Notes: generated from the letters alone by a model not told the origin. A DNA stretch of 12,048 bases from Candidatus Micrarchaeia archaeon (GCA_038870455.1 JAWCPB010000032.1:1-12048); one strand, 5' to 3'; shown: positions 19 to 12,048, counted from the stretch's first letter. A program made the numbers and translations.

Positions 19-234
19 ATCAGAACCAACCGATGACTTTTCCGTCAACGCTTTTGCCGGATCGCCGGCAAAAGGGTTGTATCGTTGGTTCCGATACCTC
101 CGAACCGCGGGAACCTACGGTTCCCCCAGTTCCAGGTTCCTCCTGACCCCTATCAGAACCAACCGACGGCTTCCTCGCTCGCAGCCCGTTCCACGGGGCT
201 CGCTCGTCGCCGAATCGTTGGTTCCGATACCTCC
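19..234. repeat. Two cassette-like units with conserved inverted-repeat arms and different 46-nt hairpin cargos, separated by a 50-nt linker homologous to a tRNA intron
   Basis: Left arm ATCAGAACCAACCGA(T/C) is at 19-34 and 152-167. Right arm ATCGTTGGTTCCGATACCTCC is at 81-101 and 214-234 (period 133). The two arms are imperfect reverse complements. Cargos 35-80 and 168-213 are unrelated to each other. Confidence 0.9.
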
Positions 235-262
235 AGCAACCTTTTTCTCTCATCGAAGAGGG

Positions 263-349
263 GGGAAGGTCCAGGACGAAGGGGGGAAACTTCCCCCCTT
301 TGTCTAGGGAAGGTCTAGGACGAAGGGGGGACACCTCCCCCCTTTGTCT
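263..349. repeat. Two tandem copies (period 44) of a G6/C6 hairpin unit
   Basis: GGGAAGGTC(C/T)AGGACGAAGGGGGG-A(A/C)AC(T/C)T-CCCCCCTTTGTCT occurs at 263-305 and 307-349. The stem is GACGAAGGGGGG/CCCCCCTTTGTC. Confidence 0.9.
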
Positions 350-532
350 TCCGTCAACGCTTTTTCGGTCCGCCGAAAAAGGGTTGGCGCCGCAGGCGCT
401 CTCTTTTTTCCGTCAACGCTTTTTCGGTCCACCGAAAAAGGGTTGGCGCCGCAGGCGCTCTCTTTTTTCCGTCAACGCTTTTTCGGTCCACCGAAAAAGG
501 GTTGTCCGCCAACGCTTTTGCCGAATCGTCGA
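349..532. repeat. Tandem 59-bp palindromic repeat (about 2.6 copies plus a degenerate fourth core)
   Basis: Core CCGTCAACGCTTTTTCGGTCC(G/A)CCGAAAAAGGGTTG starts at 351, 410 and 469, with identical linkers GCGCCGCAGGCGCTCTCTTTTTT. A degenerate core TCCGCCAACGCTTTTGCCGAATCG starts at 505. Confidence 0.92.
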
Positions 533-597
533 ATGAAGCAGCTTCCCGAAATCCTTTAAAATCCCGCCTGCGTATTCCCCCCGCGACCAGTGGAAGC

Positions 598-756
598 ATG
601 CTTTCCAGCAAAGCGGTGTGCATCAGCATTCCGGGCGACAACCCGAACTATCTGAGGATACTGCGCGCGCTGCTCGAGTCGTTCGACGGTGAAGTGGAGT
701 TTCACGTCAAGTGCAAGGACGGCATGCACTATTATCTCGTCTGGCCAAAAGAATAG
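598..756 (+). CDS. Small hypothetical protein (52 aa, MLSSKAVCISIPGDNPNY...YYLVWPKE)
   Basis: ATG at 598 lies in the 502..756 ORF, past the repeats. TTTAAAA is at 555-561 upstream, codon usage looks like that of neighbouring genes, and it is co-directional with the HEAT gene 31 nt downstream. No family recognised. Confidence 0.55.
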   Translation: MLSSKAVCISIPGDNPNYLRILRALLESFDGEVEFHVKCKDGMHYYLVWPKE

Positions 757-787
757 AGATTAAAACATTGAATGCATTCGCTTTCTC

Positions 788-1672
788 ATGGCCGACAGAG
801 AAGAGTTCAACGAGGCGCTCAAGCAGGCGCTCGCCGCGGCCGCGCCCAGCGAGCTTGAGGAGCCGCTCTCGAAAATAAGCGCGTTGGGGATGGTCAAACA
901 GGCCGTGGAGGCTTTTCTCAATGAGCTCAACAACAAAGATCCTTGGGTGAGGCACAATGCAGTCGAGGCGCTGGGCAGGCTCGGCCTCCGGGACGAGCGA
1001 GTAAAGAAAGCAGTTCCTGACCTCATTGAAGCGCTTGCCGACCCGCTCCTCCGGGCCGACATCGCCCGTGCGCTCGGCATGATCGGCGACGACAAGGCAG
1101 TGCCCGCGCTCATCGAGTGTCTGAACGACGGCAACAGGGAAGTACGCGGCAACGCAACCGAGGCGCTCGGGCACATGAAGGACAGGCGCAGCGTTCCGGC
1201 ACTCATCGAAAAGCTCGAAGACGAGAATGCGAGGGTGCGCTTCAGCGCGGCCCTCTCGCTGGGCAGGATTGGCGATGCGCGCGCGCTGCCCGCCCTCAGG
1301 AAAGCGCTTCTCGAAGACCCTGATGTCATGGTGCGCACCTACGCCGCGGCCAGCATTGGCGTCATAGGCGACCTGACCAAGGACAAGAGCGGCGCGCCGG
1401 CCCTCATCAAGGCCCTGCGCGACAAGGAAATTGAAGTTGTGCGAACCGCGGCGAGCTCCCTCGGCAGGCTCAAGGACGAGGGCGCCGTGCTTCCGCTGAC
1501 CGCGCTGCTGAGCCACGAAAACAATTTTGTGAGAAGCGACGCCGCCTGGGCTCTCGGAGTGATCGGCGACGCGTCTGCTCTGCCGGCCCTGCGCGCGAGG
1601 CTCAACGACGAGGACGACATGGTGAGGGGAAACGTGAAGCTGGCGATAGAGAAGATAGAGGGGAGAAGGTAA
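788..1672 (+). CDS. HEAT-repeat (PBS-lyase-like) protein, 294 aa
   Basis: About 8 repeats of the type L.D....VR..AA.ALG.IGD..AVPALI (e.g. LEDENARVRFSAALSLGRIGDARALPAL). Confidence 0.93.
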   Translation: MADREEFNEALKQALAAAAPSELEEPLSKISALGMVKQAVEAFLNELNNKDPWVRHNAVEALGRLGLRDERVKKAVPDLIEALADPLLRADIARALGMIGDDKAVPALIECLNDGNREVRGNATEALGHMKDRRSVPALIEKLEDENARVRFSAALSLGRIGDARALPALRKALLEDPDVMVRTYAAASIGVIGDLTKDKSGAPALIKALRDKEIEVVRTAASSLGRLKDEGAVLPLTALLSHENNFVRSDAAWALGVIGDASALPALRARLNDEDDMVRGNVKLAIEKIEGRR

Positions 1673-2076
1673 TGCCGCTCATCACCGAAGAAGAGGAGAA
1701 GAGGCTGTTCGAAAAGCTCAAGGCCTATTACGAGCGACTATACGGCATTCCGTTCAAGTCCGAGAAAGCAGTTCTAACGCCCGCTGAGATAGGCGAGCTT
1801 CACTACACTTTTCCAGGCGAAGAGGCCGAGGCGACTTTCGAGGAAAAGGTGGCCGACATCGAGTCGGCGCTGAAGACCGGCTATAACGCGCCGGCGATCA
1901 TACTCAGGAAAGAAAAACAGGGAAAAGACGTCATCATCGATGGGCATCGGCGCCTGTACGTGGCTTGGCGCAAGCGCATCTCTTGGCCGGTCCTCCTCCT
2001 CATTCCGATTAAGGAAATTGATCTCGCCATAGAGAAGACAATCACTGGAAAAATCAGGGAACTCCGGAAGGGCTAG
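1672..2076 (+). CDS. Stand-alone ParB/sulfiredoxin N-terminal-like domain protein, 134 aa
   Basis: PAIILRK...VIIDGHRRL matches the ParB/Srx (I/V)DG(H/E)RR motif. The start overlaps the HEAT gene stop (TAATG at 1670-1674). Confidence 0.8.
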   Translation: MPLITEEEEKRLFEKLKAYYERLYGIPFKSEKAVLTPAEIGELHYTFPGEEAEATFEEKVADIESALKTGYNAPAIILRKEKQGKDVIIDGHRRLYVAWRKRISWPVLLLIPIKEIDLAIEKTITGKIRELRKG

Positions 2077-2151
2077 CGAAGGGATTTTTAAACCATGTGC
2101 GCCATAACAATCACCTGAATTCTTGCTGTTTTAAAGAACAGGGGTCATGCC

Positions 2152-3462
2152 ATGCGTGTCGTGATGAAGTTCGGGGGCTCCTGCCTGAACTCGGACGAGG
2201 ACATCCGCAGGACAGTGCGCATTGTGCGCGAGCACGGGCGGCCCGTCGTCGTGCTGTCCGCGCTCAAGGGAGTAACGGACGAGCTCATAGCACAGGAAAA
2301 GGCCGCCCTCGCGGGAGGCTTTGACTTGGATAAGATAGAAGACATCCACAGGCGCGCACTCTCCGGCCTCAAGCCCGAGACGCAGGTGAAGGCGAACAAC
2401 AGGATTCATGGGAAAATAGAGGAGTTGCGCAAGCTCTACACCGCCGTTTCCTACCTAGGGGAAATCACTCCCGCGCAGCACGACCGGATAGTCTCATTCG
2501 GAGAACGCACCGTGATTGAGATCGCCGCGGCTTATTTCAACGAAGCAGGCCTGCCCGCGGTTCCGCTGTGGGGAGCCGAGGCTGGCATCGTGACGAACGA
2601 CCATTTCGGCGACGCCGTCATCCTCGAGGAGAGCGCAGAGCTGGTGAGGCAGAAGCTCCCGCACGACAAGGTGCCGGTCGTGGCCGGCTTCGTGGGTGTG
2701 ACCAAGGAGAATCAAATCACTACTCTCGGGAGGGGAGGCAGCGACTACACGGCAACATTCATAGCCGCGGCTCTAGGAAGCGCGTGCATACTGTGGAAGG
2801 ATGTGGATGGGCTTATGACCGCGGACCCGAAAATAGTCCCCGAGGCGAGAGTGGTCAAGAAGATGAACTATCTCGATGCCATGGAAATCGCGCACTACGG
2901 AAGCAAGGTCATCCAGGAGAAGAGCATTCTGCCAGCCATGATTCACAAGGTGCCCATTCACATCCGCAACGTGAATGAAAAGGGCGAGGGCACGCTCATA
3001 TCGCAGGAGGTGGGCGATTCCATGGTGGTCAGCACGGTGAAGAACGTCGCCATCATAGATCTCCTCGGCTACACGGGCATGCTCGATGTTTTGTCGCGCG
3101 TGCTACAGGAGCTGGCCAGGGACGGCATCTATCCTCTGCTCATCACGGAAAGCAGCGCGTGCGGCGAGGTGAGCATAGTCGTCGAAGAGGGAAAGGCCGG
3201 CAGGATAGAGAAGGCTGCCAAAGTCCTCATGGCGGGAAAGAAGATGACTGTCGACAGGGGGCTCGGCATGGTGAGCATCATCGGCAGCGTCATGCGCGGG
3301 AGAGTGGGAACCGCCGCCGCCGTCTTCGACTGCCTCGCGGAAGAGAGAATAAACATCATAACCATCTCGCAGAGCGCGAGCGAGAGGAGCATCAGCGTTG
3401 TCATCGAAGGCGACAAGGTGCAGAAGGCCGCCCAAGCGCTCCACAGGAAATTCGTGAAGTAG
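2152..3462 (+). CDS. lysC: Aspartate kinase with C-terminal ACT domains, 436 aa
   Basis: Motifs VMKFGGS, VVLSALKGVTD, SFGER, TTLGRGGSDYTA and WKDVDGLMTADPKIVPEAR, plus ACT-like SIIGSVMRGRVGTAAAVF...ISQSASERSIS. Candidate TATA boxes are at 2085-2092 and 2129-2136. Confidence 0.95.
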   Translation: MRVVMKFGGSCLNSDEDIRRTVRIVREHGRPVVVLSALKGVTDELIAQEKAALAGGFDLDKIEDIHRRALSGLKPETQVKANNRIHGKIEELRKLYTAVSYLGEITPAQHDRIVSFGERTVIEIAAAYFNEAGLPAVPLWGAEAGIVTNDHFGDAVILEESAELVRQKLPHDKVPVVAGFVGVTKENQITTLGRGGSDYTATFIAAALGSACILWKDVDGLMTADPKIVPEARVVKKMNYLDAMEIAHYGSKVIQEKSILPAMIHKVPIHIRNVNEKGEGTLISQEVGDSMVVSTVKNVAIIDLLGYTGMLDVLSRVLQELARDGIYPLLITESSACGEVSIVVEEGKAGRIEKAAKVLMAGKKMTVDRGLGMVSIIGSVMRGRVGTAAAVFDCLAEERINIITISQSASERSISVVIEGDKVQKAAQALHRKFVK

Positions 3463-4755
3463 TCAGCGGAGTTTTGCCCCCAGGCCCGCATACCTCGCCG
3501 CGATCTTCTCGCCTATTTTTTTCGCGTCCGCGTCCGCGTAAATGTGAAAGCGCAGCGTGACGCTCTTGCCTTCCTTCAGCTGGTAAGTGTCTATGACCTC
3601 AACTTTCAGGATGTCCTCGTCAATCCCGCTGCCGGCCGCCCTCACCGCCTCTGGCTCGCATGAGGGAAACAGAAAGGAGTAATCCCTGTAAGTCGCTCTC
3701 TTCATCTTCCACTCCCGCAGCTCGTCCTCCCCAAGCACGCGCACGTTGGCCAGCTTAAGCGCCTTCCTCGTTTTGCCCTCCATAATCTCCACCGTGTCGG
3801 CTGTCACGCTCTCCAGCCTGCCGTAGTGCACGGCGCGCGAGTAGATGTTCTCCAGCCCCACGCATCTTCCGACGCTCGCCCTCAGCGCGTTGAGCTCGGC
3901 GTAAAGCGCTCCGATGGCCTTGTCGCTCTTCGCCATGCCGTCTTCCAGGTTTCCGTAGTTCTTCGCCGCCTCCGTCATGAGGCGGATGAACCCCTCCTTG
4001 TCCTTCTCCTCAATGACCTTGCGCAGCCTGGCCGCCTGCTTGACGAAGGCAGCGCGCACGCTCTTGGCAAACGGGTTATGCATCTGAATGTCCGCGTACA
4101 GGTGCGGGTCCTGGCCGATTATCCTCGCCACCAAGTCCATGGTCAGCTCGTATACGGGCGAGGCGAATTTCCTCGAGGCCCTGACATCCGCCCCGAGTTC
4201 CTTCAGCGTGGCCGCTGTCGTTATGTAGGAAAAGTGCGTGAGCGCCTGCACGACCGCCACCATCCTGTCGTGCTCTTCCGGAGTGGTCTCGACAATGCTC
4301 GCCCCCCTCTCGGCGAAAAACGCCTTTATTCTTTCGAACCTCCCGCCTTTTCTGACGGGCGTGAACACGACCATTTGCCCATCAAGGGAGGCCACCCTCG
4401 GCCCGTGCATGGGGTGGCAGCCGACGACCTCCTCGCATGCCGCTTTTGTCATTTCCCTGACTGCCTCTGTCTTCACGCTCGTGAAGTCCATGAGCAGACA
4501 TTCCCTGCGGAGGTGCGGCAGGAGCCCTCGGACAGCCCGCACCGTCTCCGAAATGGGCACGCTGATGATTACAGCATCCGCGTTTGCCGCGGCCTCTTCA
4601 TTCGAGTCAGCGAACTCTATCCCAAGCTCTCCCGCAACCTTCCTTGCCTTGCCCGCGTCGGCATCCGAAATCGTTACCTGAAAGCCCGCTTCCTTGAACA
4701 GCCTGGCATAAAGCGAGCCGAGCGCGCCCGCGCCTCCCACTACTGCAATGCGCAT
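3463..4755 (-). CDS. tyrA: Prephenate dehydrogenase (archaeal long form with C-terminal extension), about 430 aa
   Basis: Rossmann motif MRIAVVGGAGALG, plus DFTSVK, catalytic GCHPMHGP and EEHDRMVAVVQALTH. The start is placed at the ATG at 4755 rather than the ORF-track 4776. Confidence 0.92.
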   Translation of the reverse strand: MRIAVVGGAGALGSLYARLFKEAGFQVTISDADAGKARKVAGELGIEFADSNEEAAANADAVIISVPISETVRAVRGLLPHLRRECLLMDFTSVKTEAVREMTKAACEEVVGCHPMHGPRVASLDGQMVVFTPVRKGGRFERIKAFFAERGASIVETTPEEHDRMVAVVQALTHFSYITTAATLKELGADVRASRKFASPVYELTMDLVARIIGQDPHLYADIQMHNPFAKSVRAAFVKQAARLRKVIEEKDKEGFIRLMTEAAKNYGNLEDGMAKSDKAIGALYAELNALRASVGRCVGLENIYSRAVHYGRLESVTADTVEIMEGKTRKALKLANVRVLGEDELREWKMKRATYRDYSFLFPSCEPEAVRAAGSGIDEDILKVEVIDTYQLKEGKSVTLRFHIYADADAKKIGEKIAARYAGLGAKLR

Positions 4756-4776
4756 GCACGTAATTCGCAGAAGCAA

Positions 4777-4785
4777 TTTTTAAAT
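4777..4785. promoter_or_regulatory. Putative TATA box shared by the divergent tyrA and C-N hydrolase genes
   Basis: TTTTTAAAT is centred in a 51-bp intergenic gap, about 21 nt from each start codon (4755 and 4807). Confidence 0.55.
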
Positions 4786-4806
4786 GAAGGGGTGAGAAGT
4801 TAGTCC

Positions 4807-5580
4807 GTGAGGATTGCCTTTGTCCAAACGAACCCAAAGCTTCTCGCAGTTGAGGAAAACATCGAGCGGGCGCTCTCTTTAGCAAAAGGCGTGCGCGCCG
4901 ACCTCATCGTGTTTCCGGAGCTTTTCAGCACGGGCTACAACTTCAGGAGCAAGAGGGAAGTTGTGGCTGTTGCTGAAATCGCTGGCAAAGGGCCTGCGAG
5001 CGAGGCTCTCCTCAGCGAAGCAAGGCGCAGAAACTGCATGATGGTCGCGGGCTTTGCTGAAAAAAGCGGGGGCAGGCTCTTCAACTCCGCCCTCATCGCC
5101 ACGCCCAAGGGCTTTTCGGTCTATAGAAAAACTCATCTCTTTGGCCGCGAGAAGCTCTTCTTCTCCCCGGGCGACACGGGCTTCCGCGTTTTTCCCTGGA
5201 AGGGCGCGCGCGTGGGCGTCATGGTGTGCTTCGACTGGTTCTTTCCAGAGTCCGCGCGCACGCTCATGCTGAAAGGCGCCGAGGTCATCGCGCACCCTGC
5301 GAACCTCGTGCTGCCCTGGTGCCCGGAGGCCATGCGCACGAGGTGCGTAGAGAACAGGGTGTTCGCGGTGACTGCCGACAGGGTGGGCGCCGAACGCGGC
5401 CTGCGCTTCATCGGCCGGTCTCAGATTACCGGAACGCATGGAGAGGTCATCTACAGGGCAAGCGCCGACAGGGAGGAAGTTCGCGCGGCTGAAATCAATG
5501 TGAAGAAAGCGAGGGACAAGAAAATTGGCGAGCGGAATCATCTCGTCAGGGACAGGAGGAGGGAGTTCTACCACCCGTAG
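4807..5580 (+). CDS. Nitrilase / carbon-nitrogen hydrolase superfamily protein, 257 aa
   Basis: Glu-Lys-Cys triad in LIVFPELFSTGY, YRKTHLF and MVCFDWFFPESAR. GTG start. Confidence 0.93.
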   Translation: MRIAFVQTNPKLLAVEENIERALSLAKGVRADLIVFPELFSTGYNFRSKREVVAVAEIAGKGPASEALLSEARRRNCMMVAGFAEKSGGRLFNSALIATPKGFSVYRKTHLFGREKLFFSPGDTGFRVFPWKGARVGVMVCFDWFFPESARTLMLKGAEVIAHPANLVLPWCPEAMRTRCVENRVFAVTADRVGAERGLRFIGRSQITGTHGEVIYRASADREEVRAAEINVKKARDKKIGERNHLVRDRRREFYHP

Positions 5581-6731
5581 TTCTTCGCCCTAGACATCTC
5601 GAACGACTGCATCGCTGCGAAAATGTTTTTCGTGAAGACCGACGGCCTGGCCAACAGCTTCAGCCCGCCGACGAGCTTGTCCAGCAGGCTCATTCTCGAA
5701 AGTTCTTTGGGGAGCGCGCTGCCGATGGCGTTCAGCTCGTCCTGGGTGAATGCGTAGAAGGCCCGCTTTCCCTCCACCATCCTCGCGTAATCGGGAAACT
5801 CGCTTTTCCACAGCCTCTCGTAAAGCCTGAGGATGTTCTGCGTCGTGTCGTTCCTCTTTACCGCCTGCGCCGCCACTTCCGCAGCGAGCTCGCCGCTCTT
5901 GAGCGCCAGGTGCGTTCCTCCCTCGAAGAGCGGGGAGGCGAAGCCCGCCGCGTCGCCCACGAGAAGCAGCCCGTCGCCAAAAGTTTTTGCAGAAGGGCCT
6001 GAGGCAGGGATGAGCCCGCCGAACGCCTTCTCCACGCTCTTGTTCTCCCACGCCATGCGCGAGACGAACTCATCGAGGTATTTCTTTGCGTTGCTCTTAT
6101 CGGTCGTGATCAATCCGACGTTCGCCTTTCCATCTCCTTTCGGAATCATCCACAGGTAGCCGCCCGGCGCGAGCTCGGGCCACAGGTAGAAGTCTAGGTA
6201 GCCGTCTGTCGGAATGTCGCTCATCCTGTACTGCAGGCCTATGACAGTCTCGTGCGGGGGATTAAGCCCGAGCTTTCTTGAAGCGAACGCCTGCACCCCG
6301 CTCGCGTCAATAAGCAGCTCGGCTTCGAATTCCCCGTTCGAGGCGGAAGCCCTCCAGCGGTCGCTCCTCTCCAGCCCCTCGATTTTCACCGGGAAGGCGA
6401 GCTTTGCCCCAGCAGCCTGCGCCTCGCCCGCCAGCCAGGCCTCAAACTTGTCTTTGTTCAGCACGAAGCCGGGCTCGGTGAGCACGCTCGCGGAATGGTT
6501 TGGGAAAATAACGCGCACGCCCCGCACGCTCATCGCAATCGCTTCCTGCGGGAGCTTGAGCTTGAACTTCTCGACCGCCAGCGCGCTGAGGCACTCCCCG
6601 CAGTGCACTGGCTCGCCTATTCTCGGATGCTCTTCGCAGAGCAGCACGCTCAGGCCCTTCCTTGCGGCGTGAAGGGCCGCGGAGCAGCCCGCAGGGCCCG
6701 CGCCCGTCACGAGCACGTCGTACAGCTCCAT
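5568..6731 (-). CDS. Geranylgeranyl reductase family FAD-dependent oxidoreductase (DGGR-like), 387 aa
   Basis: Motifs YDVLVTGAGPAG, GEPVHCGE, PGGYLWMIPKG and LLVGDAAGFASPLFEGG. Its 3' end overlaps the hydrolase gene by 13 nt. Confidence 0.9.
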   Translation of the reverse strand: MELYDVLVTGAGPAGCSAALHAARKGLSVLLCEEHPRIGEPVHCGECLSALAVEKFKLKLPQEAIAMSVRGVRVIFPNHSASVLTEPGFVLNKDKFEAWLAGEAQAAGAKLAFPVKIEGLERSDRWRASASNGEFEAELLIDASGVQAFASRKLGLNPPHETVIGLQYRMSDIPTDGYLDFYLWPELAPGGYLWMIPKGDGKANVGLITTDKSNAKKYLDEFVSRMAWENKSVEKAFGGLIPASGPSAKTFGDGLLLVGDAAGFASPLFEGGTHLALKSGELAAEVAAQAVKRNDTTQNILRLYERLWKSEFPDYARMVEGKRAFYAFTQDELNAIGSALPKELSRMSLLDKLVGGLKLLARPSVFTKNIFAAMQSFEMSRAKNYGW

Positions 6732-6735
6732 CTGA

Positions 6736-7470
6736 TTACCCCATGTAGGCGTGAGCTGCCGCGATCACACAGACTCCAATCAGTATGAAAGCGAGCTGAG
6801 TGAGCGATTCCTTCAGCGTGCCTGTCTTGTGCAGCTCCGGAAACAAGTCCGCGCCCGCAATGTAGATGAATCCTCCGGCTGCAAACGGTAGCATGAGGGT
6901 GGTGAAAGCCTGGGCTTGCTGGGCCAAGAAATAAGCGGCAACCGCGCCGACCACCGCTGTGAGCGCGGTCGCAAAATTGTAGAGGATTGCCTCGCGCTTG
7001 GTGAATCCGCCTTTCAGGAGGATGCTGAAGTCGCCTATTTCCTGCGGAATCTCATGCGCCGCAACGGCAATCGTCGCGGTCACTCCCGTGGCGAAGTCGG
7101 CGAGGTAAGCAACGGCTATTATCGCGCCATCCAGGAAATTGTGGATGCCGTCCCCCAGCAGGTTCATGTAAGCATATTCGTGCACCCTGCACTTCCTGTC
7201 GTGGCAGTGGTACCACCTGAGCAGCTTTTCGATTGCAAAAAAAGCAATCACCCCGAGCAGTGCGAGCGCGAAATGGCCGTTTCCCAGCGCGGCCTGCGCC
7301 TCGGGCAGGAGGTCCAGGAACGCGGCGCCCAGCAGCGTGCCGGCAGCAAAGCTGACGAGCGCGGGCAGAACCTTCCCCAGCGTCGCCTTCCGCAGCGAGA
7401 GCAGGGCCACCCCAACGAGCGAGATGAGGCTGACGGCAATCGCTGAAGCCAGAATGTACAGCAGGCTCAT
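6736..7470 (-). CDS. ZIP-family (ZupT-like) divalent metal transporter, about 244 aa
   Basis: Multiple hydrophobic helices with DLLPEA, GDGIHNFLDG, AHEIPQEIGDF, AAGGFIYIA.DLFPE and a His/Cys loop WYHCHDRKCRVHE. The start is placed at ATG 7470, downstream of a TATA box. Confidence 0.93.
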   Translation of the reverse strand: MSLLYILASAIAVSLISLVGVALLSLRKATLGKVLPALVSFAAGTLLGAAFLDLLPEAQAALGNGHFALALLGVIAFFAIEKLLRWYHCHDRKCRVHEYAYMNLLGDGIHNFLDGAIIAVAYLADFATGVTATIAVAAHEIPQEIGDFSILLKGGFTKREAILYNFATALTAVVGAVAAYFLAQQAQAFTTLMLPFAAGGFIYIAGADLFPELHKTGTLKESLTQLAFILIGVCVIAAAHAYMG

Positions 7471-7489
7471 GCGCCATATTTTTCGGGTA

Positions 7490-7500
7490 ATTATATAAAA
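7490..7500 (-). promoter_or_regulatory. Putative TATA box for the ZIP-GGR operon
   Basis: The minus strand reads TTTTATATAAT about 20-30 nt upstream of ATG 7470. Confidence 0.65.
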
Positions 7501-7525
7501 ACCAACGCCAGCCACAGCCCGCCTT

Positions 7526-7840
7526 TCAGCCCAGGGAGGATGACACGCGCCGAATTGTCTTCATACTCCTCGTTGTCACAAAAATCGGCTTTCCAAAGTA
7601 TGCTGACAGAACCCTCTCCAGCCGCGAACCAACCGTTGCGTAGTGCATGCCCCTCTTCTTGAAGACAACATTATCAGTCTTGTCAATTTTTAAAATTCTC
7701 AGGTTATCCGTCTCAATCTTTCGGCACAATGCGAACATTTTCTCCTGTGTTATCCTCGCATTTCTGTAAAAGTTAATTCCTCTCACAAACGCGATCCCTT
7801 CCTCCCAACCGCTTGCAGCCCTACGCTTCGCTCTCATCAT
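7526..7840 (-). CDS. DUF1697-like protein (N-terminal half only), about 104 aa
   Basis: IAFVRGINF...NVVF...LERVLSAYFGKPIFVTTRS resembles the DUF1697 pattern (Y/I)ALLRGINV...SGNVVF...FG..V.V.VR. The start could be 7846, 7840 or 7837. The gene is visibly more AT-rich than its neighbours. Confidence 0.65.
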   Translation of the reverse strand: MMRAKRRAASGWEEGIAFVRGINFYRNARITQEKMFALCRKIETDNLRILKIDKTDNVVFKKRGMHYATVGSRLERVLSAYFGKPIFVTTRSMKTIRRVSSSLG

Positions 7841-7865
7841 AACCACTTGTGGGCTGTATGCAAAG

Positions 7866-8072
7866 CGCCTTGGCCGGGATTCGAATTCCCTGACTCTTTT
7901 CCGTTGACGCTTTTGCGCCGAAGGCGGAAAAGGGTCACCCGGGTCGCCGGCTTTCCGCCGCCTCCCTTTGCGAAAGGAGGGGGATCCGGAGGACCCTCAA
8001 ACTGAGGGGGAACCTAGGTTCCCCCGCGGTTCGGCGACAGGCCGGTATGCTAGTCCACTACACAACCAAGGC
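7866..8072 (-). tRNA. tRNA-Asp(GTC) with two introns: 82 nt at 37/38 (7953-8034) and 52 nt at 53/54 (7886-7937)
   Basis: Spliced sequence: GCCTTGG TT GTGT AGTGGACTA GCAT A CCGGC CT GTC G^A GCCGG CGAC CCGGG ^TTCGAAT CCCGG CCAAGGC G. All four stems pair, both junction pairs fold as BHB-like motifs, and there is no encoded CCA. Confidence 0.93.
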
Positions 8073-8124: not shown

Positions 8125-8739
8125 CTAGAGGGTTTCATTCGGCAGAATGTGTTCTTTTGGGCTGATTCCTCCCATGGCCGTTGTAATGATATGCCGAATC
8201 GCCGCTTCTTTAACTGCGAATTCCTTGGAGAGCTCTTTGAAGGACTTCGGCTCGCCTCCGTCCAAGCCAAACCTCGACAGCACGATCCCGAGCTGGTTTT
8301 GTTGAATGACGAGGATCGTGACTGCCTCGCGGATTTTCACTTTGTCTTCTTCAGAGAGTTCGCCTGATTTGATGTTTTGCTCAGGCACCCCCAGTTTTGC
8401 AAGGACTTCCGTTTCGCGGGGAGTGAAAAAGCTTCTCCTGACACGCAGCGCGCTTTCCCTGCGGGCCTCCATTTCCTTTTTTTCCTCCTCCTTCGCTTGA
8501 ACGTAGCCCTCGCCGCCTATCTCGCAGTTTATCCCCTCAATCGCGTCCACGGCGCTTTTGGCTTCAGTCAAGCGACCTAACAGCCTTTCTTCCGGCACTC
8601 CTTTCATGAAAGCGCGCACGAGCGCCCTTTTAACGTCGAATGGCCCGAATTTTTCATCGCTCTTGATTTCCGCTCCGCTGGCCTTCAGGAGATCATGGGC
8701 CTTCACCGCGAGGGCGTCGGATGGCGTGGCGTGTATCAT
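8125..8739 (-). CDS. Hypothetical protein with C-terminal sigma70 region-4-like helix-turn-helix, 204 aa
   Basis: QLGIVLSRFGLDGGEPKSFKELSKEFAVKEAAIRHIITTAM resembles the region-4 pattern VL.LRFGL.DGE..TL.EVG..F.VTRERIRQIE.KAL. AATAAATA lies on the minus strand at about 8764-8771 upstream. Confidence 0.7.
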   Translation of the reverse strand: MIHATPSDALAVKAHDLLKASGAEIKSDEKFGPFDVKRALVRAFMKGVPEERLLGRLTEAKSAVDAIEGINCEIGGEGYVQAKEEEKKEMEARRESALRVRRSFFTPRETEVLAKLGVPEQNIKSGELSEEDKVKIREAVTILVIQQNQLGIVLSRFGLDGGEPKSFKELSKEFAVKEAAIRHIITTAMGGISPKEHILPNETL

Positions 8740-8787: not shown

Positions 8788-8871
8788 GGAGGCCCTAGAA
8801 CCAACGATACAGTGACGAGCGAGCCCCGTGGCAACGGGCTGCGAGAGAAGAAGCTATCGACTAGTGCCTAG
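8788..8871 (-). repeat. Third, diverged copy of the arm-cargo-arm element (homologous to 152-234), abutting the 3' end of tRNA-Tyr
   Basis: The + strand GAACCAACGATACAGTGACGAGCGAGCCCCGTGGCAACGGGCTGCGAGAGAAGAAGC matches the reverse complement of unit 2, GAACCAACGATTCGGCGACGAGCGAGCCCCGTGG-AACGGGCTGCGAGCGAGGAAGC. Confidence 0.88.
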
Positions 8872-9020
8872 TCCCGCTGGGCGGATTTTCACGGAACCGC
8901 GGAGATGTCAACCCCTCCGCGGTTCGGTTTGAACCACCAACATTTCGGTTTCTGCCAGCAAAAAAGCGCTGGGCAAGCAAGCTACAGCCGAACGCTCTAG
9001 CCAAGTTGAGCTACAGCGGG
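8872..9020 (-). tRNA. tRNA-Tyr(GTA) with two introns: 32 nt at 37/38 (8950-8981) and 42 nt at 59/60 (8886-8927)
   Basis: Spliced sequence: CCCGCTG TA GCTC AACTTGGCTA GAGC G TTCGG CT GTA G^A CCGAA ATGTT GGTGG TTCAAA^T CCGCC CAGCGGG A. It has the C1:G72 and A73 archaeal Tyr identity elements. The 59/60 intron has central helix TTCA/TGAA with bulges AA^C and AA^T. Confidence 0.94.
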
Positions 9021-9045
9021 TGAAATGGTTATGTGCGGTTGTATT

Positions 9046-10893
9046 CTAAAAGATTGCGCGTCTGCTGAGGTGGGTGGGCAGGGAAAGAGGCTCGAAGGGC
9101 TGGCCCGCACACTCCGAGGCAATGCAGGAAACGAGCTCTGCGGGCTTCATCTTCTCCTGTTTCCCGGTGGAGCGCACGCGCACGCTGAGGAAACCCCCCT
9201 CCGCCTCCTTCTCTCCCACCACCGCGATGTACGGGATCCACTCCTTTTCCGCGTCGCGCACTTTCTTCTGAAGCGTCTCGGTGCGGTCGTCGAAATCAAC
9301 CCGAATGTTTTTGGAGGAAAGCTCCGCAAGCAGCTTCTCGCACGCCGGATTCTGCGCGTCGCTCACCGGCACGAGGCGGAGCTGGGTGGGCGCGAGCCAA
9401 GTGGGGAACAAAGGAGTTTTCCCCATGGCGATTTTGCGCGCTTGTTCCTCCAGGAGCGCGTAGACATTGCGGTCGGTCGAGCCGGAGAGAGAGGCGTGCA
9501 GCAGGACAGGCTTCTGCTTCTCTCCTTTTTCATTCACGAAGCTGATGTCGTAAGTCTCTGCGTTCTCCACGTCGATCTGCACTGTCGAAAGCGCGCTGGC
9601 CTTGTCCAGGTTGTCGATGAAGTTGAACTCGAACTTCGTTATGAAATAGGCGTATCTTTCGGCAAACATCTCGATGAAAATGGGCTTGCCGAGCCGTTTT
9701 GCAAACCGCTTGTACCACCCCCCGTTTTCCTCATAGAAGTCCTTCTGGACGCGGAAGGCGGTTTCGAACGGGAGGGCGAGGCCTGCCAGCCACTGCTGGC
9801 ACAGCTCAAACTGCTTGGCGAACTCTTCCTTGGCCTGAGGCAGGTCCCTGCACAGCGTGTGCATGTCTGGCATGGTGAATGCGCGCAGCCTGCGCAGGCC
9901 GGCCACCTCGCCGCTCTGTTCCCTGCGGAAGCTGTATTTCGTGAGCTCGTAAATCTTGAGGGGAAGAGAGCGGTGGCTGATGACAGCGTCGCGGGCTATG
10001 AGGAATTGCCCGAAGCACGCCGCGAACCTCAGGAAAAGCTCCTTGTCCTCGCTCTCGACCACGTACTGCCTCGCAGGAAACCTGTCGAGGTATTTTTTGA
10101 GCGTCGGATGCTCGAAGTCGTACATGACGGGCGTCTCGACTTCCATCGCGCCGTAGGAAATGCAGAGGCTGGAAACTTTTTTTTCAAGCAGCTTTTTCAC
10201 GAGCCTGCCGGCCGGGTACCAGCGGAGGTTTCCCGAGTCGCTTCCGGGCTCGAACCACGCTATGGCGTGCTCGCGCATGAGGCGGATGTGAGGCGGCTCC
10301 TTTTCGTAAGCGCGCACCTTGTGAATCTCGTAGTCGGCCAGCTTCTTGAGCTGCGGAAACTTCTTGAAGTCGAAAGAGGCGACTGGGACGAGCTCCCCTT
10401 CTGGCGTGAGGATGAAGTACTCGCTTTTTGCCTTCGCTTCGGTCTGCAGTGCTTTGGAAACACGTTCTTTGGGCGCTCCCTCCCCTCTTATCTCCCTAGA
10501 CAGCTCGGCGAGAGGGTGGCCCTTTGCCTTGAGGTCGAAGCTCTTGTACCAGCCGAATGGCGCGCGCACAACCTCGTACTCCATCTCTTCAAGCAGCTTG
10601 GCCGCCTGCTTAAGCAGGGCGAGCGCTTTCTCAGGCTTGGCGGGCCTGCTGGTGAGATGCACCCACGGGTAGAGGACGATGCGGTCGGCCTTCACCTGCT
10701 CCGCCACCCCGTCGATTTCATCAGCAGCTTTCGCCGCTGCCAGCTCGTCGTCGCCTTCCTCGGCCGCGCAGAAAGCCACGAGGCAATCGGTCACCCTCGT
10801 TGTTTCTCCGGCTGCGGCCTCTTCGGCTGCCTTCACCGCTTTCTGCACGGGCGTGAATTCGATGAAGTCGCTGTGAACAGTTACCAGCCTCAC
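9046..10893 (-). CDS. thrS: Threonine--tRNA ligase, archaeal type with N-terminal DTD-like editing domain, 615 aa
   Basis: N-terminal VRLVTVHSDFIEF, YPWVHL, RAPFGWYKSFDLKAKGHPLAELSREI; core FLRFAACFG, YSFRREQSGE..GLRRLRAFTMPDMH; anticodon domain WLAPTQLRLVPV. The GTG start at 10893 overlaps the Lrp stop (GTGA) and is preceded by SD-like AAGGTGA. Confidence 0.97.
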   Translation of the reverse strand: MRLVTVHSDFIEFTPVQKAVKAAEEAAAGETTRVTDCLVAFCAAEEGDDELAAAKAADEIDGVAEQVKADRIVLYPWVHLTSRPAKPEKALALLKQAAKLLEEMEYEVVRAPFGWYKSFDLKAKGHPLAELSREIRGEGAPKERVSKALQTEAKAKSEYFILTPEGELVPVASFDFKKFPQLKKLADYEIHKVRAYEKEPPHIRLMREHAIAWFEPGSDSGNLRWYPAGRLVKKLLEKKVSSLCISYGAMEVETPVMYDFEHPTLKKYLDRFPARQYVVESEDKELFLRFAACFGQFLIARDAVISHRSLPLKIYELTKYSFRREQSGEVAGLRRLRAFTMPDMHTLCRDLPQAKEEFAKQFELCQQWLAGLALPFETAFRVQKDFYEENGGWYKRFAKRLGKPIFIEMFAERYAYFITKFEFNFIDNLDKASALSTVQIDVENAETYDISFVNEKGEKQKPVLLHASLSGSTDRNVYALLEEQARKIAMGKTPLFPTWLAPTQLRLVPVSDAQNPACEKLLAELSSKNIRVDFDDRTETLQKKVRDAEKEWIPYIAVVGEKEAEGGFLSVRVRSTGKQEKMKPAELVSCIASECAGQPFEPLSLPTHLSRRAIF

Positions 10894-11357
10894 GGCATCA
10901 CCTTCAGCATTTCGGGGCGCGCGGCGATGTCCTCCTTGACGCAGTTGAGCACGGTAGAGGTGAGCGTGTGCTCTATGTTTGGGTTGGAGAGAAGGCGTTT
11001 CACGAAAGCGTTCAGCTCGCTCATATCCCTGAATTTGGCGATAACGAGCACATCCCATTCTCCGGTGATGTCGTACACCGCGATGACGTTCGGCATCTGC
11101 GCGATTTCCTTCTCGACTTCCTCAAGCATCCCCCCTCGCGCCTTGACGCTGATGGCCACGGTCACGCCGTACCCAAGCTTCTCCGGATTGATCAGCGGCA
11201 CGAAGCCCTTAAGCACCCCCTCCTCCTGCATTTTCCTCACTCTCACGAGAATGGTGCTGGGGCTCAGCCTCAGCGCCCTGGCCATGTCGCGGAAGCTCGC
11301 GCGCGCGTCCCGCCCCAGCAGCTCGAGTATCCTGCGGTCGGTGGCATCCAGTTCCAT
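10890..11357 (-). CDS. Lrp/AsnC family transcriptional regulator, about 155 aa
   Basis: HTH MELDATDRRILELLGRDARASFRDMARALRLSPSTILVRVRKMQEEGVLKGF and RAM domain VYDITGEWDVLV. The start is placed at ATG 11357. Confidence 0.95.
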   Translation of the reverse strand: MELDATDRRILELLGRDARASFRDMARALRLSPSTILVRVRKMQEEGVLKGFVPLINPEKLGYGVTVAISVKARGGMLEEVEKEIAQMPNVIAVYDITGEWDVLVIAKFRDMSELNAFVKRLLSNPNIEHTLTSTVLNCVKEDIAARPEMLKVMP

Positions 11358-11380
11358 CGAGAGAAAATTGGCGTCAAACA

Positions 11381-11388
11381 TTTAAATA
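11381..11388. promoter_or_regulatory. Putative TATA box between the divergent Lrp and TPR genes
   Basis: TTTAAATA lies about 23 nt from the Lrp ATG (11357) and about 27 nt from the TPR ATG (11416). Confidence 0.55.
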
Positions 11389-11415
11389 GGTGGCTGGATT
11401 ATTGATATGGTTGCC

Positions 11416-12048
11416 ATGCCAAGGAAGGACAGCGAAGCCGAGGCGATCGACGAGGAGGAGACAGGGGGGAAGCCCTCCCCCACCGATGCCCGGACGTATT
11501 ATCACAGGGGAAACGCCTACTACGAGAAAGGCGATTACGACCGGGCCATAGAAAACTACAACATGGCCATCGTGCTGAACCCGAACTTCAGCGAGGCCTA
11601 CTTCAACCGCGGCCTGGCCTACTACAACAAGAAAGAGTTCGACAAGGCCATAGCCGACTACACGCGCTCGGCCGAGCTCGACCCTCGCAACGCAGTCATC
11701 TATAACAACCGGGGCGATGCGCACTACCGCAAGCAAGACTTTGACAAGGCCATTCTCGACTACGACAAGGCCATCAGCCTCAACCCTAGGTACCTCAAGG
11801 CGTATTACAACAGGGGCCTGGCCTATGCCTGCCAGCAGGACTACGAGCGGGCGGTCGAAGACTTTGACAAGGTCATCGAGCTCAACCCGAACTTTGCTGA
11901 AGCGTGGCACATCCGCGGGCTCGCCTACGATTACATGGGCGACTACGAGAAGGCCATCGCGGACTATGACAAGGCCATCGAGCTCAACCCGAACTTCACT
12001 GAAGCCATCAACCACAGGGAGCTCGCCAAGGGAAAAATGGAGCGTGGA
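11416..12048 (+). CDS. Tetratricopeptide-repeat protein (partial, runs off the window; absent from the ORF track)
   Basis: Translated by hand from ATG 11416 (alternative in-frame ATG 11407): MPRKDSEAEAIDEEETGGKPSPTDARTYYHRGNAYYEKGDYDRAIENYNMAIVLNPNFSEAYFNRGLAYYNKKEFDKAIADY... It has five 34-aa TPRs and no stop before 12048. Confidence 0.95.
   Translation, partial: MPRKDSEAEAIDEEETGGKPSPTDARTYYHRGNAYYEKGDYDRAIENYNMAIVLNPNFSEAYFNRGLAYYNKKEFDKAIADYTRSAELDPRNAVIYNNRGDAHYRKQDFDKAILDYDKAISLNPRYLKAYYNRGLAYACQQDYERAVEDFDKVIELNPNFAEAWHIRGLAYDYMGDYEKAIADYDKAIELNPNFTEAINHRELAKGKMERG

Follow-up and report, generated by a model that had tools for sequence, protein, structure and literature searches.

In Thermoproteales, whole introns recur in different tRNAs by transposition (PMC4090602, PMC4033280, 10.64898/2026.10.13.758758; here and below, papers are cited for the accessible parts of their text). 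The mechanism of this transposition is called unknown in PMC4090602, and how introns arrive is still open in the preprint 10.64898/2026.10.13.758758, where about 80% identity and lengths within 20% are the criterion for a transposed whole intron. Here we analyse a 12,048-nucleotide (nt) stretch of DNA from Candidatus Micrarchaeia archaeon (GCA_038870455.1, JAWCPB010000032.1:1-12048), referred to below as the window. An array of palindromic modules at positions 1-540 of the window and three of the four introns in two of its tRNA genes belong to one lineage-specific module family. Intron transposition in Thermoproteales is the closest precedent among the sources consulted; new here, as seen in one window and five further loci, is that the shared units are modules, which also occur outside introns bounded by exons.

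Two other systems are close to what we describe. ARMAN-2 (Candidatus Micrarchaeum acidiphilum) has 56% of its tRNA genes disrupted, including by introns at positions 53/54 and 59/60, with quoted intron lengths of 13 and 25 nt, and its epsilon2 endonuclease cuts both strict and relaxed bulge-helix-bulge (BHB) motifs (PMC3239211). Leader sequences of split and tri-split tRNAs have counterparts among the introns of related species (PMC10714607, PMC4033280). In the literature searched as full text, in which few subscription journals are represented, no paper was found that connects the tRNA introns of archaea with a family of repeats located in tRNA flanks or intergenic DNA.

Modules shared by a repeat array and tRNA introns

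The array at 1-540, on the plus strand, is a chain of self-folding hairpin modules that we designate M1a, M2, M1b, a linker, two copies of U44, and M4. M1a (19..101, +) and M1b (152..234, +) have identical arms, beginning with ATCAGAACC and ending with GGTTCCGATACCTCC, the last 21 nt included, and enclose unrelated interiors; that of M1a contains TTTTCCGTCAACGCTTTT. The M1 arms GAACCAAC and GTTGGTTC are terminal inverted repeats. M2 (100..151, +) starts with CCGAACCGCGG, has at its centre a hairpin formed by the 15-nt palindrome GGAACCTACGGTTCC, and ends with CAGTTCCAGGTTCCTCCTGA. The linker (235..262, +) begins with AGCAACC and pairs as a hairpin with the start of the 44-base-pair (bp) array that follows (U44, 263..349, +), which consists of two tandem units, each with a 12-bp G-rich hairpin made of GACGAAGGGGGG, a loop and CCCCCCTTTGTC. 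M4 (349..504, +) comprises 2.6 tandem 59-bp units, each with the motif TTCCGTCAACGCTTTT and two hairpins, and the array closes on the right, at 505..540 (+), with a last, degenerate copy of the 5' motif of M4 (TCCGCCAACGCTTTTGC). Tandem 59-bp cores had already been noted by a reader working from the DNA alone (hereafter the sequence-only reading), and Tandem Repeats Finder returned two tandem arrays, the 44-bp unit with 2.0 copies at 263-349 and the 59-bp unit with 2.6 copies at 349-504. Compared with shuffled sequences, the folds gave z values of -6.3 (1-250) and -8.8 (236-545), and inverted repeats were detected as well.

On the raw, unspliced window, ARAGORN found 0 tRNA genes, and Rfam at E<=1 gave five weak matches, none of them to tRNA. 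We therefore describe genes whose exon borders were set by eye and whose exons, joined by coordinates, were then submitted to ARAGORN. A tRNA-Asp(GTC) gene (7866..8072, -) has exons at 8072-8035, 7952-7938 and 7885-7866, which together give a 73-nt tRNA, and is interrupted by an 82-nt intron at position 37/38 (intron 1, 7953..8034, -) and a 52-nt intron at 53/54 (intron 2, 7886..7937, -). A tRNA-Tyr(GTA) gene (8872..9020, -), which the sequence-only reading had not listed, has exons at 9020-8982, 8949-8928 and 8885-8872, gives a 75-nt tRNA with the archaeal C1-G72 pair, and carries a 32-nt intron at 37/38 (intron 1, 8950..8981, -) and a 42-nt intron at 59/60 (intron 2, 8886..8927, -). Exon joining restores the cloverleaf in both, and bulge-helix-bulge structures lie at the junctions, which predicts excision as archaeal BHB introns. 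With 3-nt bulges, the central helix has four of four pairs in Asp intron 1 and in both Tyr introns, the BHB being canonical in Tyr intron 1 and of the canonical 3-4-3 form (UUCA/UGAA) in Tyr intron 2; Asp intron 2 has three of four pairs, a relaxed form. In each window intron, the four central-helix bases contributed by the intron complement exon bases of its own tRNA, as in Asp intron 1, where the 3' adaptor GCGG-AA pairs with CUGU (positions 32-35). Every intron can thus be regarded as a short tRNA-specific adaptor plus a filling.

It is in the fillings that the array reappears. Window 99-150 (+) aligned with nt 1-55 of Asp intron 1 in the tRNA sense (Smith-Waterman score 56, 45 of 55 columns identical), and window 36-77 (+) aligned with the plus strand of Asp intron 2, that is, antisense to the tRNA (score 38, 34 of 42 columns). 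Both alignments had been proposed in the sequence-only reading, the first between the M2 region and the start of the 37/38 intron, the second between positions 34-78, together with the 59-bp tandem cores, and the 53/54 intron. Asp intron 1 is accordingly built from M2, in tRNA sense and with a 14-nt variant of GGAACCTACGGTTCC in it, plus a further hairpin and the 3' adaptor; Asp intron 2 carries the M4 motif on the plus strand and also the TTTTCCGTCAACGCTTTT motif of the M1a interior. None of 300 dinucleotide shuffles of either Asp intron reached the observed score (z 13.4 and 7.1), and neither did any of 500 shuffles that preserved the predicted base pairs of each intron, the structure-matched control that the sequence-only reading had named. 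Its central proposal, that introns and cluster are one repeat family, is borne out by these comparisons and by the copies at five loci of a related genome described below.

The other tRNA gene gave a similar picture. A variant of M1 (8788..8871, -) directly follows the discriminator base of tRNA-Tyr, in tRNA sense and with a T-run next to it, and so forms the 3' trailer of this gene; its alignment scored 82, a value reached by 0 of 300 shuffles. The 11-mer CCGAACCGCGG starts M2, Asp intron 1 and Tyr intron 2. It has three exact copies in the window and, with one mismatch allowed, six sites against 0.5 expected. Of the motif TCCGYYRACGCTTTTKC, the window has six copies, five within 41-521 and one in Asp intron 2, against 0.06 expected by chance. 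When compared with the pooled arrays, Asp intron 1, Asp intron 2 and Tyr intron 2 were each significant (0 of 200 shuffles as high). Tyr intron 1 was the negative case, with 95 of 200 shuffles scoring as high.

Related arrays in a Micrarchaeia genome

A genome collection was scanned with the 3' arm of M1, as a 21-nt pattern covering the three window variants, and 13 loci were obtained. Five of them lie on five contigs of a single metagenome-assembled genome (MAG), 'Candidatus Micrarchaeia archaeon isolate QQ_201907_bins_60'. The other eight (L001-3, 5, 7, 9, 12 and 13), single hits from unrelated bacterial MAGs, share only the 21-nt pattern and were taken as chance matches; by our rough estimate, about nine chance matches of the pattern would be expected in 596 Gb. 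The loci of the window itself were absent from the result, so the collection does not include its genome. In blastn searches, the modules contained in window 81-352 recurred in the five MAG loci with 75-96% identity, and no coding DNA was shared. The sequence-only reading had considered that no other copies might exist in the genome; in this relative, they do. A map of the modules by regular expressions, covering the 12 kb window and 16 kb of MAG loci, placed them solely inside arrays and introns.

All five MAG arrays touch tRNA exons. Since tRNA genes and their immediate flanks make up, by our estimate, something of the order of 1% of such a genome, this is not a chance distribution. In L010, a tRNA-Arg(ccg) with exons 1840-1878 and 2121-2155 was called by ARAGORN after joining, and the sequence between them, 1879-2120 (+), is a 242-nt BHB intron at 37/38 that is array throughout: it contains, in reverse orientation, M1, the linker and two copies of U44, and apart from these just six adaptor bases (GGAGAA). 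In L004, the array is directly next to a tRNA T-arm and acceptor end in reverse complement, recognized by eye and called by neither ARAGORN nor Rfam, and it extends to the contig end. A tRNA 3' part followed by an array and the contig end indicates a long intron or a split gene, and the L004 array is probably a second array intron in this MAG. The remaining three arrays are flanks. In L006, 2 nt separate the array from the 3' end of tRNA-Thr(ggt), a gene with two introns, and the array is thus a 3' trailer; in L008, tRNA-Gly(ccc) is followed, in tRNA sense, by an M2-like hairpin, M1, the linker and two U44 units as 3' trailer; and in L011, M2 in reverse orientation is joined without a gap to base 1 of tRNA-Val(gac), an intact gene, as 5' leader. 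Across the eight introns tested in the window and the MAG, the BHB had four of four central pairs with 3-nt bulges in six, the exceptions being Asp intron 2, with three of four pairs, and the first of the L006 introns (intron A), with none. The tRNA-Thr(ggt) of L006 was solved by eye and then confirmed, and no BHB was found for this 28-nt first intron.

These loci change the view of the window array as a free-standing intergenic cluster, as it had been described from the sequence alone. The array lies at the window edge, all five related arrays adjoin or lie inside a tRNA gene, and the third M1 copy of the window is likewise the tRNA-Tyr 3' trailer. Concern had also been raised that 1-540 might be a misassembly. 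Chance likeness of GC-rich hairpins, or an assembly artefact, could be suspected from the position of the cluster at the window edge and from the L004 and L011 contigs, which end inside arrays. On the other hand, no shuffle of either kind reached the alignment scores, and the same architecture is present in three independent contigs of 128-152 kb (L006, L008 and L010), where the arrays lie inside the contigs, near intact genes. We regard such an origin as extremely improbable. L004 (1-191) and L011 (1-189) both end in an array, and both break off at the linker that follows a short M1. Contig ends of this kind suggest that the repeats break short-read assemblies, and they may thereby hide tRNA exons.

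In the nine contexts known (four from the window, five from the MAG), module orientation relative to the tRNA is sense in four and antisense in five. This count bears on an RNA route, in which introns, once excised and often circular, would be inserted elsewhere by reverse splicing or reverse transcription and so seed copies in flanks and intergenic DNA, a possibility also raised in the sequence-only reading. M2 does start exactly at the 5' splice site in both Asp 37/38 and Tyr 59/60 (13 of 14 nt), and module ends abut splice sites without a spacer, as such a route would have it. It predicts a single orientation, however, whereas both are present; copies abut the mature 5' and 3' ends of tRNAs, where RNase P and RNase Z act, rather than BHB sites; the 3' adaptors of the introns are tRNA-specific; and no reverse transcriptase was found among 31 open reading frames (ORFs), 14 in the window and 17 flanking the MAG loci (about 2 kb per side). 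The RNA route therefore appears very unlikely to us.

Whole introns are not what is shared. Among 21 intron pairs compared, one, Asp intron 1 with Tyr intron 2, beat 300 shuffles, and the shared stretch was the first 14 nt (13 of 14) of introns 82 and 42 nt long. A family of whole introns of the Thermoproteales type was rejected on this basis, and the near-identical introns that the sequence-only reading had invoked by analogy with that group are replaced by shared modules, in a lineage, Micrarchaeia (DPANN), that is a different one. The intron of the L008 tRNA-Gly(ccc) looked similar to Asp intron 2 by eye (TGACC..TTTTCCG..CGGAAAAGA). This candidate was dropped, as 7 of 300 shuffles reach its score; against the arrays, 77 of 200 shuffles score as high as this intron.

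L008 contains three tRNA-Gly genes (gcc, tcc and ccc) within 1.7 kb. One of them, at 399-545 of the contig (JAWAFC010000004.1), is a candidate circularly permuted tRNA-Gly(tcc): its 3' fragment (414-427) lies upstream of its 5' fragment (479-537), the joined fragments give a 73-nt tRNA by ARAGORN, and by eye its leader pairs with its trailer in the UUCA/UGAA 59/60 BHB that is also found in Tyr intron 2 of the window. The modules could be seen as leftovers of tRNA rearrangement, that is, 'zipper' leaders and trailers of split or permuted genes, or integration scars, copied by recombination. That the lineage has a candidate permuted tRNA would fit, as would the L004 tRNA 3' part followed by array and contig end, and the split-tRNA leaders of Caldivirga match introns of relatives (PMC10714607). 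Moreover, M2 abuts exons both ways, so that a 5' piece with M2 and a 3' piece with its complement could pair. Several observations point the other way. The permuted tRNA-Gly has no array modules in its leader or trailer, no two arrays complementary to each other were seen in the window or the five loci, the ORFs flanking the MAG arrays include no integrase or recombinase, and the arrays of L010, L006 and L008 lie within long contigs beside intact genes. We consider an origin of this kind distinctly unlikely.

Conservation, nesting and folding of the modules

The way in which the modules vary is characteristic. M1 has invariant arms, with interiors replaced wholesale. M1b and the M1 copy of L004 are identical at 83 of 83 positions. 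Between the M2 copies of the window and L004, both flanks are the same, but the central hairpin is not. In L006, L008 and L010 (three of eight long copies), the M1 interior has the 15-nt palindrome nested in it, and in L008 the palindrome is doubled. In U44, the stems are invariant in nine of nine copies from two genomes, and changes are limited to the loop and one flank base. The module order M1, linker, U44 is conserved in the window and the MAG loci; an AGCAACC linker lies 3' of M1 in six of ten M1 copies, whose left flanks are C-rich and whose right flanks are other modules. The window and the five loci thus contain mosaic arrays of few module types with conserved linkers, as in the bacterial mosaics considered below, and within each of the six arrays all modules are on one strand. 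When the 316-nt pre-tRNA-Arg is folded to minimum free energy, none of the four tRNA stems is lost and the intron forms separate hairpins.

Constancy of this degree raises the question of whether the modules are functional RNA elements under selection, such as cis-acting pre-tRNA signals, protein-binding hairpins, or small or circular RNAs. A C/D-box guide in the tRNA-Trp intron of haloarchaea provides an analogue. The identical M1 copies, the invariant U44 stems, the conserved module order and the strong folds are all in favour, and by eye a C-to-U change in the M1 inner stem still pairs as G-U on the M1 strand. The orientations, four sense and five antisense, mean that no single RNA strand is conserved, however. 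In U44 the G-U pairs fall on the M1 strand; in the M1 outer stem, that strand has A-C mismatches and the opposite one has the G-U pairs. An assignment of a functional strand from G-U pairs and A-C mismatches was therefore abandoned, as U44 and the M1 outer stem indicate opposite strands and give no verdict. In addition, interiors are swapped wholesale, no Rfam family matches, and other tRNAs do without modules. Taken together, a function of this kind seems rather unlikely to be what the family represents.

Coding capacity and neighbouring sequences

The arrays are non-coding. Every array is crossed by long open frames, but protein-coding arrays were rejected because the M1 frame differs between loci and open frames run through tRNA exons, and a translation of 2-304 had no match in the protein collection. 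A known RNA family was also rejected, the best Rfam match reaching 26.6 bits where the gathering score is 100. Matches to mir-641, BjrC80 and Clostridiales-2 on 232-355 were far under the gathering scores and are G-rich hairpin look-alikes. The paired 44-bp hairpins of the window (272-351), L006 (2222-2299) and L008 (2066-2153) all match the animal mir-641, at 26-29 bits against 100. A plasmid or virus origin was not supported by a blastn search in distant mode, in which 1-545 was unmatched in plasmid and phage collections that hold few DPANN elements.

The left edge of the array coincides with the first bases of the window, the neighbouring DNA to the left lying outside it. Positions 1-18, before the first module, are CACGCAATCCCCCCACAC and resemble the tail of another G/C hairpin; read as the start of a tRNA on the minus strand, they would have a base other than A at position 14. 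To the right of the array, in the stretch 550-756 (+), a TATA-like box (TTTAAAA, near 556) with CGAAA before it precedes an ATG at 598 by about 40 nt. This ATG opens a 52-codon ORF that has no Pfam match.

The 31 ORFs of the window and the MAG flanks are housekeeping genes or lack a Pfam match. For the aspartate kinase of the window, the best named relatives are from Micrarchaeota/Micrarchaeia at <=58% identity, and one metagenome protein shares 84%. No convincing Pfam match was obtained for the ORFs at 9025-11385 (+, 786 aa) and 8125-8739 (-, 204 aa), the only one being Got1 (E 9e-4), below the cut-off; the 204-aa ORF sits between the tRNA-Asp and tRNA-Tyr genes. At 11533-12027 (+), a 102-bp periodic repeat with four copies 63-70% identical corresponds to TPR coding repeats in an ORF starting at 11407.

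Comparison with described systems

With ARMAN-2 (PMC3239211, PMC12397907), the genomes studied here have in common the same or a neighbouring class, multiple introns per tRNA, introns at 53/54 and 59/60, and strict as well as relaxed BHB motifs. The 242-nt intron of L010 is much longer than the 13 and 25 nt quoted for ARMAN-2, and in its accessible parts the ARMAN-2 paper (PMC3239211) has 0 occurrences of 'repeat', 'trailer' and 'intergenic' and mentions no repeats shared by introns and flanks. Thermoproteales resemble our case, as far as the sources go, in having related sequences in introns of different tRNAs at 37/38, 53/54 and 59/60, plausibly in a splicing endonuclease of broad specificity, and in a mechanism thought to act at the DNA level. 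Here, unlike in Thermoproteales, the shared units are modules of 11-55 nt, which are also found in leaders, trailers and tandem arrays and which fill a whole 242-nt intron. The leaders of split tRNAs, as described in the sources above, offer the likeness that one sequence is an intron in one gene and the flank of a tRNA piece in another; they are unique complementary pairs that zip together, whereas the modules are self-folding repeats at many loci, beside or inside intact tRNAs.

The closest known architecture is that of repetitive extragenic palindromic (REP) sequences and the bacterial interspersed mosaic elements (BIMEs) composed of them. Bacterial REP/BIME mosaics are thought to be moved by REP-associated tyrosine transposases (RAYTs), which belong to the HUH class. 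Like them, the Micrarchaeia modules are short imperfect palindromes in mosaics with conserved linkers, lie in transcribed non-coding DNA, have no gene of their own and vary in their loops. They differ in being archaeal, in being bound to tRNA genes including gene interiors, and in that the modules of an array are co-oriented rather than alternating in REP/BIME style. A RAYT, as would accompany REP sequences, is also absent from the 31 ORFs near the arrays. REP-type repeats number tens to hundreds of copies per genome; with one exact motif, five arrays were obtained from the MAG. Compared with miniature inverted-repeat transposable elements (MITEs), terminal inverted repeats are present in M1, and a consistent target-site duplication was not found in ten M1 copies.

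Discussion

The distribution of the modules is best read as a confinement of the family to those parts of tRNA transcripts that are discarded: introns at 37/38, 53/54 and 59/60, 5' leaders and 3' trailers. On balance, we favour the view that the modules are REP/BIME-like selfish, non-autonomous repeats that spread as DNA and are tolerated through tRNA processing, an account we hold to be somewhat more probable than its alternatives combined. The modules would multiply by nesting into hairpin loops, by tandem duplication or slippage, and by block copying between tRNA loci. Intron copies would be cut out by the splicing endonuclease at BHB junctions built from a few tRNA-specific adaptor bases, and leader and trailer copies would be removed by RNase P and RNase Z. 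The palindromic nature of the modules may act as a filter, in that a module folding on itself would spare the fold of the tRNA body. By analogy with ARMAN-2, which is from the same group, a permissive splicing endonuclease in this lineage is plausible. The sequence-only reading had put forward that repeats are tolerated because splicing removes them; the finding of modules at sites discarded by processing, and only there, agrees with this. Because each intron has tRNA-specific adaptor bases, the modules would mostly have entered or enlarged existing introns and flanks rather than created introns in one step. That Asp intron 1 and Tyr intron 2 begin alike leaves room for some de novo intron gain.

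A number of observations weigh against the view of mobile selfish repeats. No transposase, integrase or reverse transcriptase was present among the 31 ORFs, nor were the HUH/RAYT or IS200/IS605 genes that, together with a reverse transcriptase, the sequence-only reading had named as a possible driver. As a non-autonomous element needs no enzyme gene nearby, this result is compatible with mobility. No consistent direct repeat that would represent a target-site duplication flanks the ten M1 copies. Modules are missing in four of seven small introns (Tyr intron 1, that of the L008 tRNA-Gly, and introns A and B of the L006 tRNA-Thr), and two further tRNA-Gly genes in L008 are without an array. The conserved order M1, linker, U44, the 83 identical positions in M1 and the invariant stems agree with selection for a function, or with block copying by recombination, no less than with transposition. 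Finally, the sample consists of one window and five loci chosen by one exact motif, and so of arrays bearing M1.

We also raise, tentatively and as a less probable extension, that this tRNA-targeted hairpin family may supply the material from which BHB introns of Micrarchaeia arise and grow. Modules in leaders and trailers would then enter tRNA genes or their introns and gain the adaptor bases that complete a BHB; nesting and tandem duplication would enlarge the introns to at least 242 nt; and the arrays would supply recombination sites at which tRNA genes could be split or permuted.

Both tRNA genes of the window were missed by ARAGORN and Rfam, indicating that the tRNA inventories of such genomes are undercounted. 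In this lineage, the sequence of introns leads back to a repeat family that also lies beside tRNA genes, and in a relative this extends to a complete intron of 242 nt. The question of how introns arrive thereby becomes countable, in terms of module gain and loss per tRNA locus, of junctions, and of a co-occurring enzyme gene. Should the modules indeed be the raw material of introns, they would represent the first identified donor pool for the tRNA introns of archaea.

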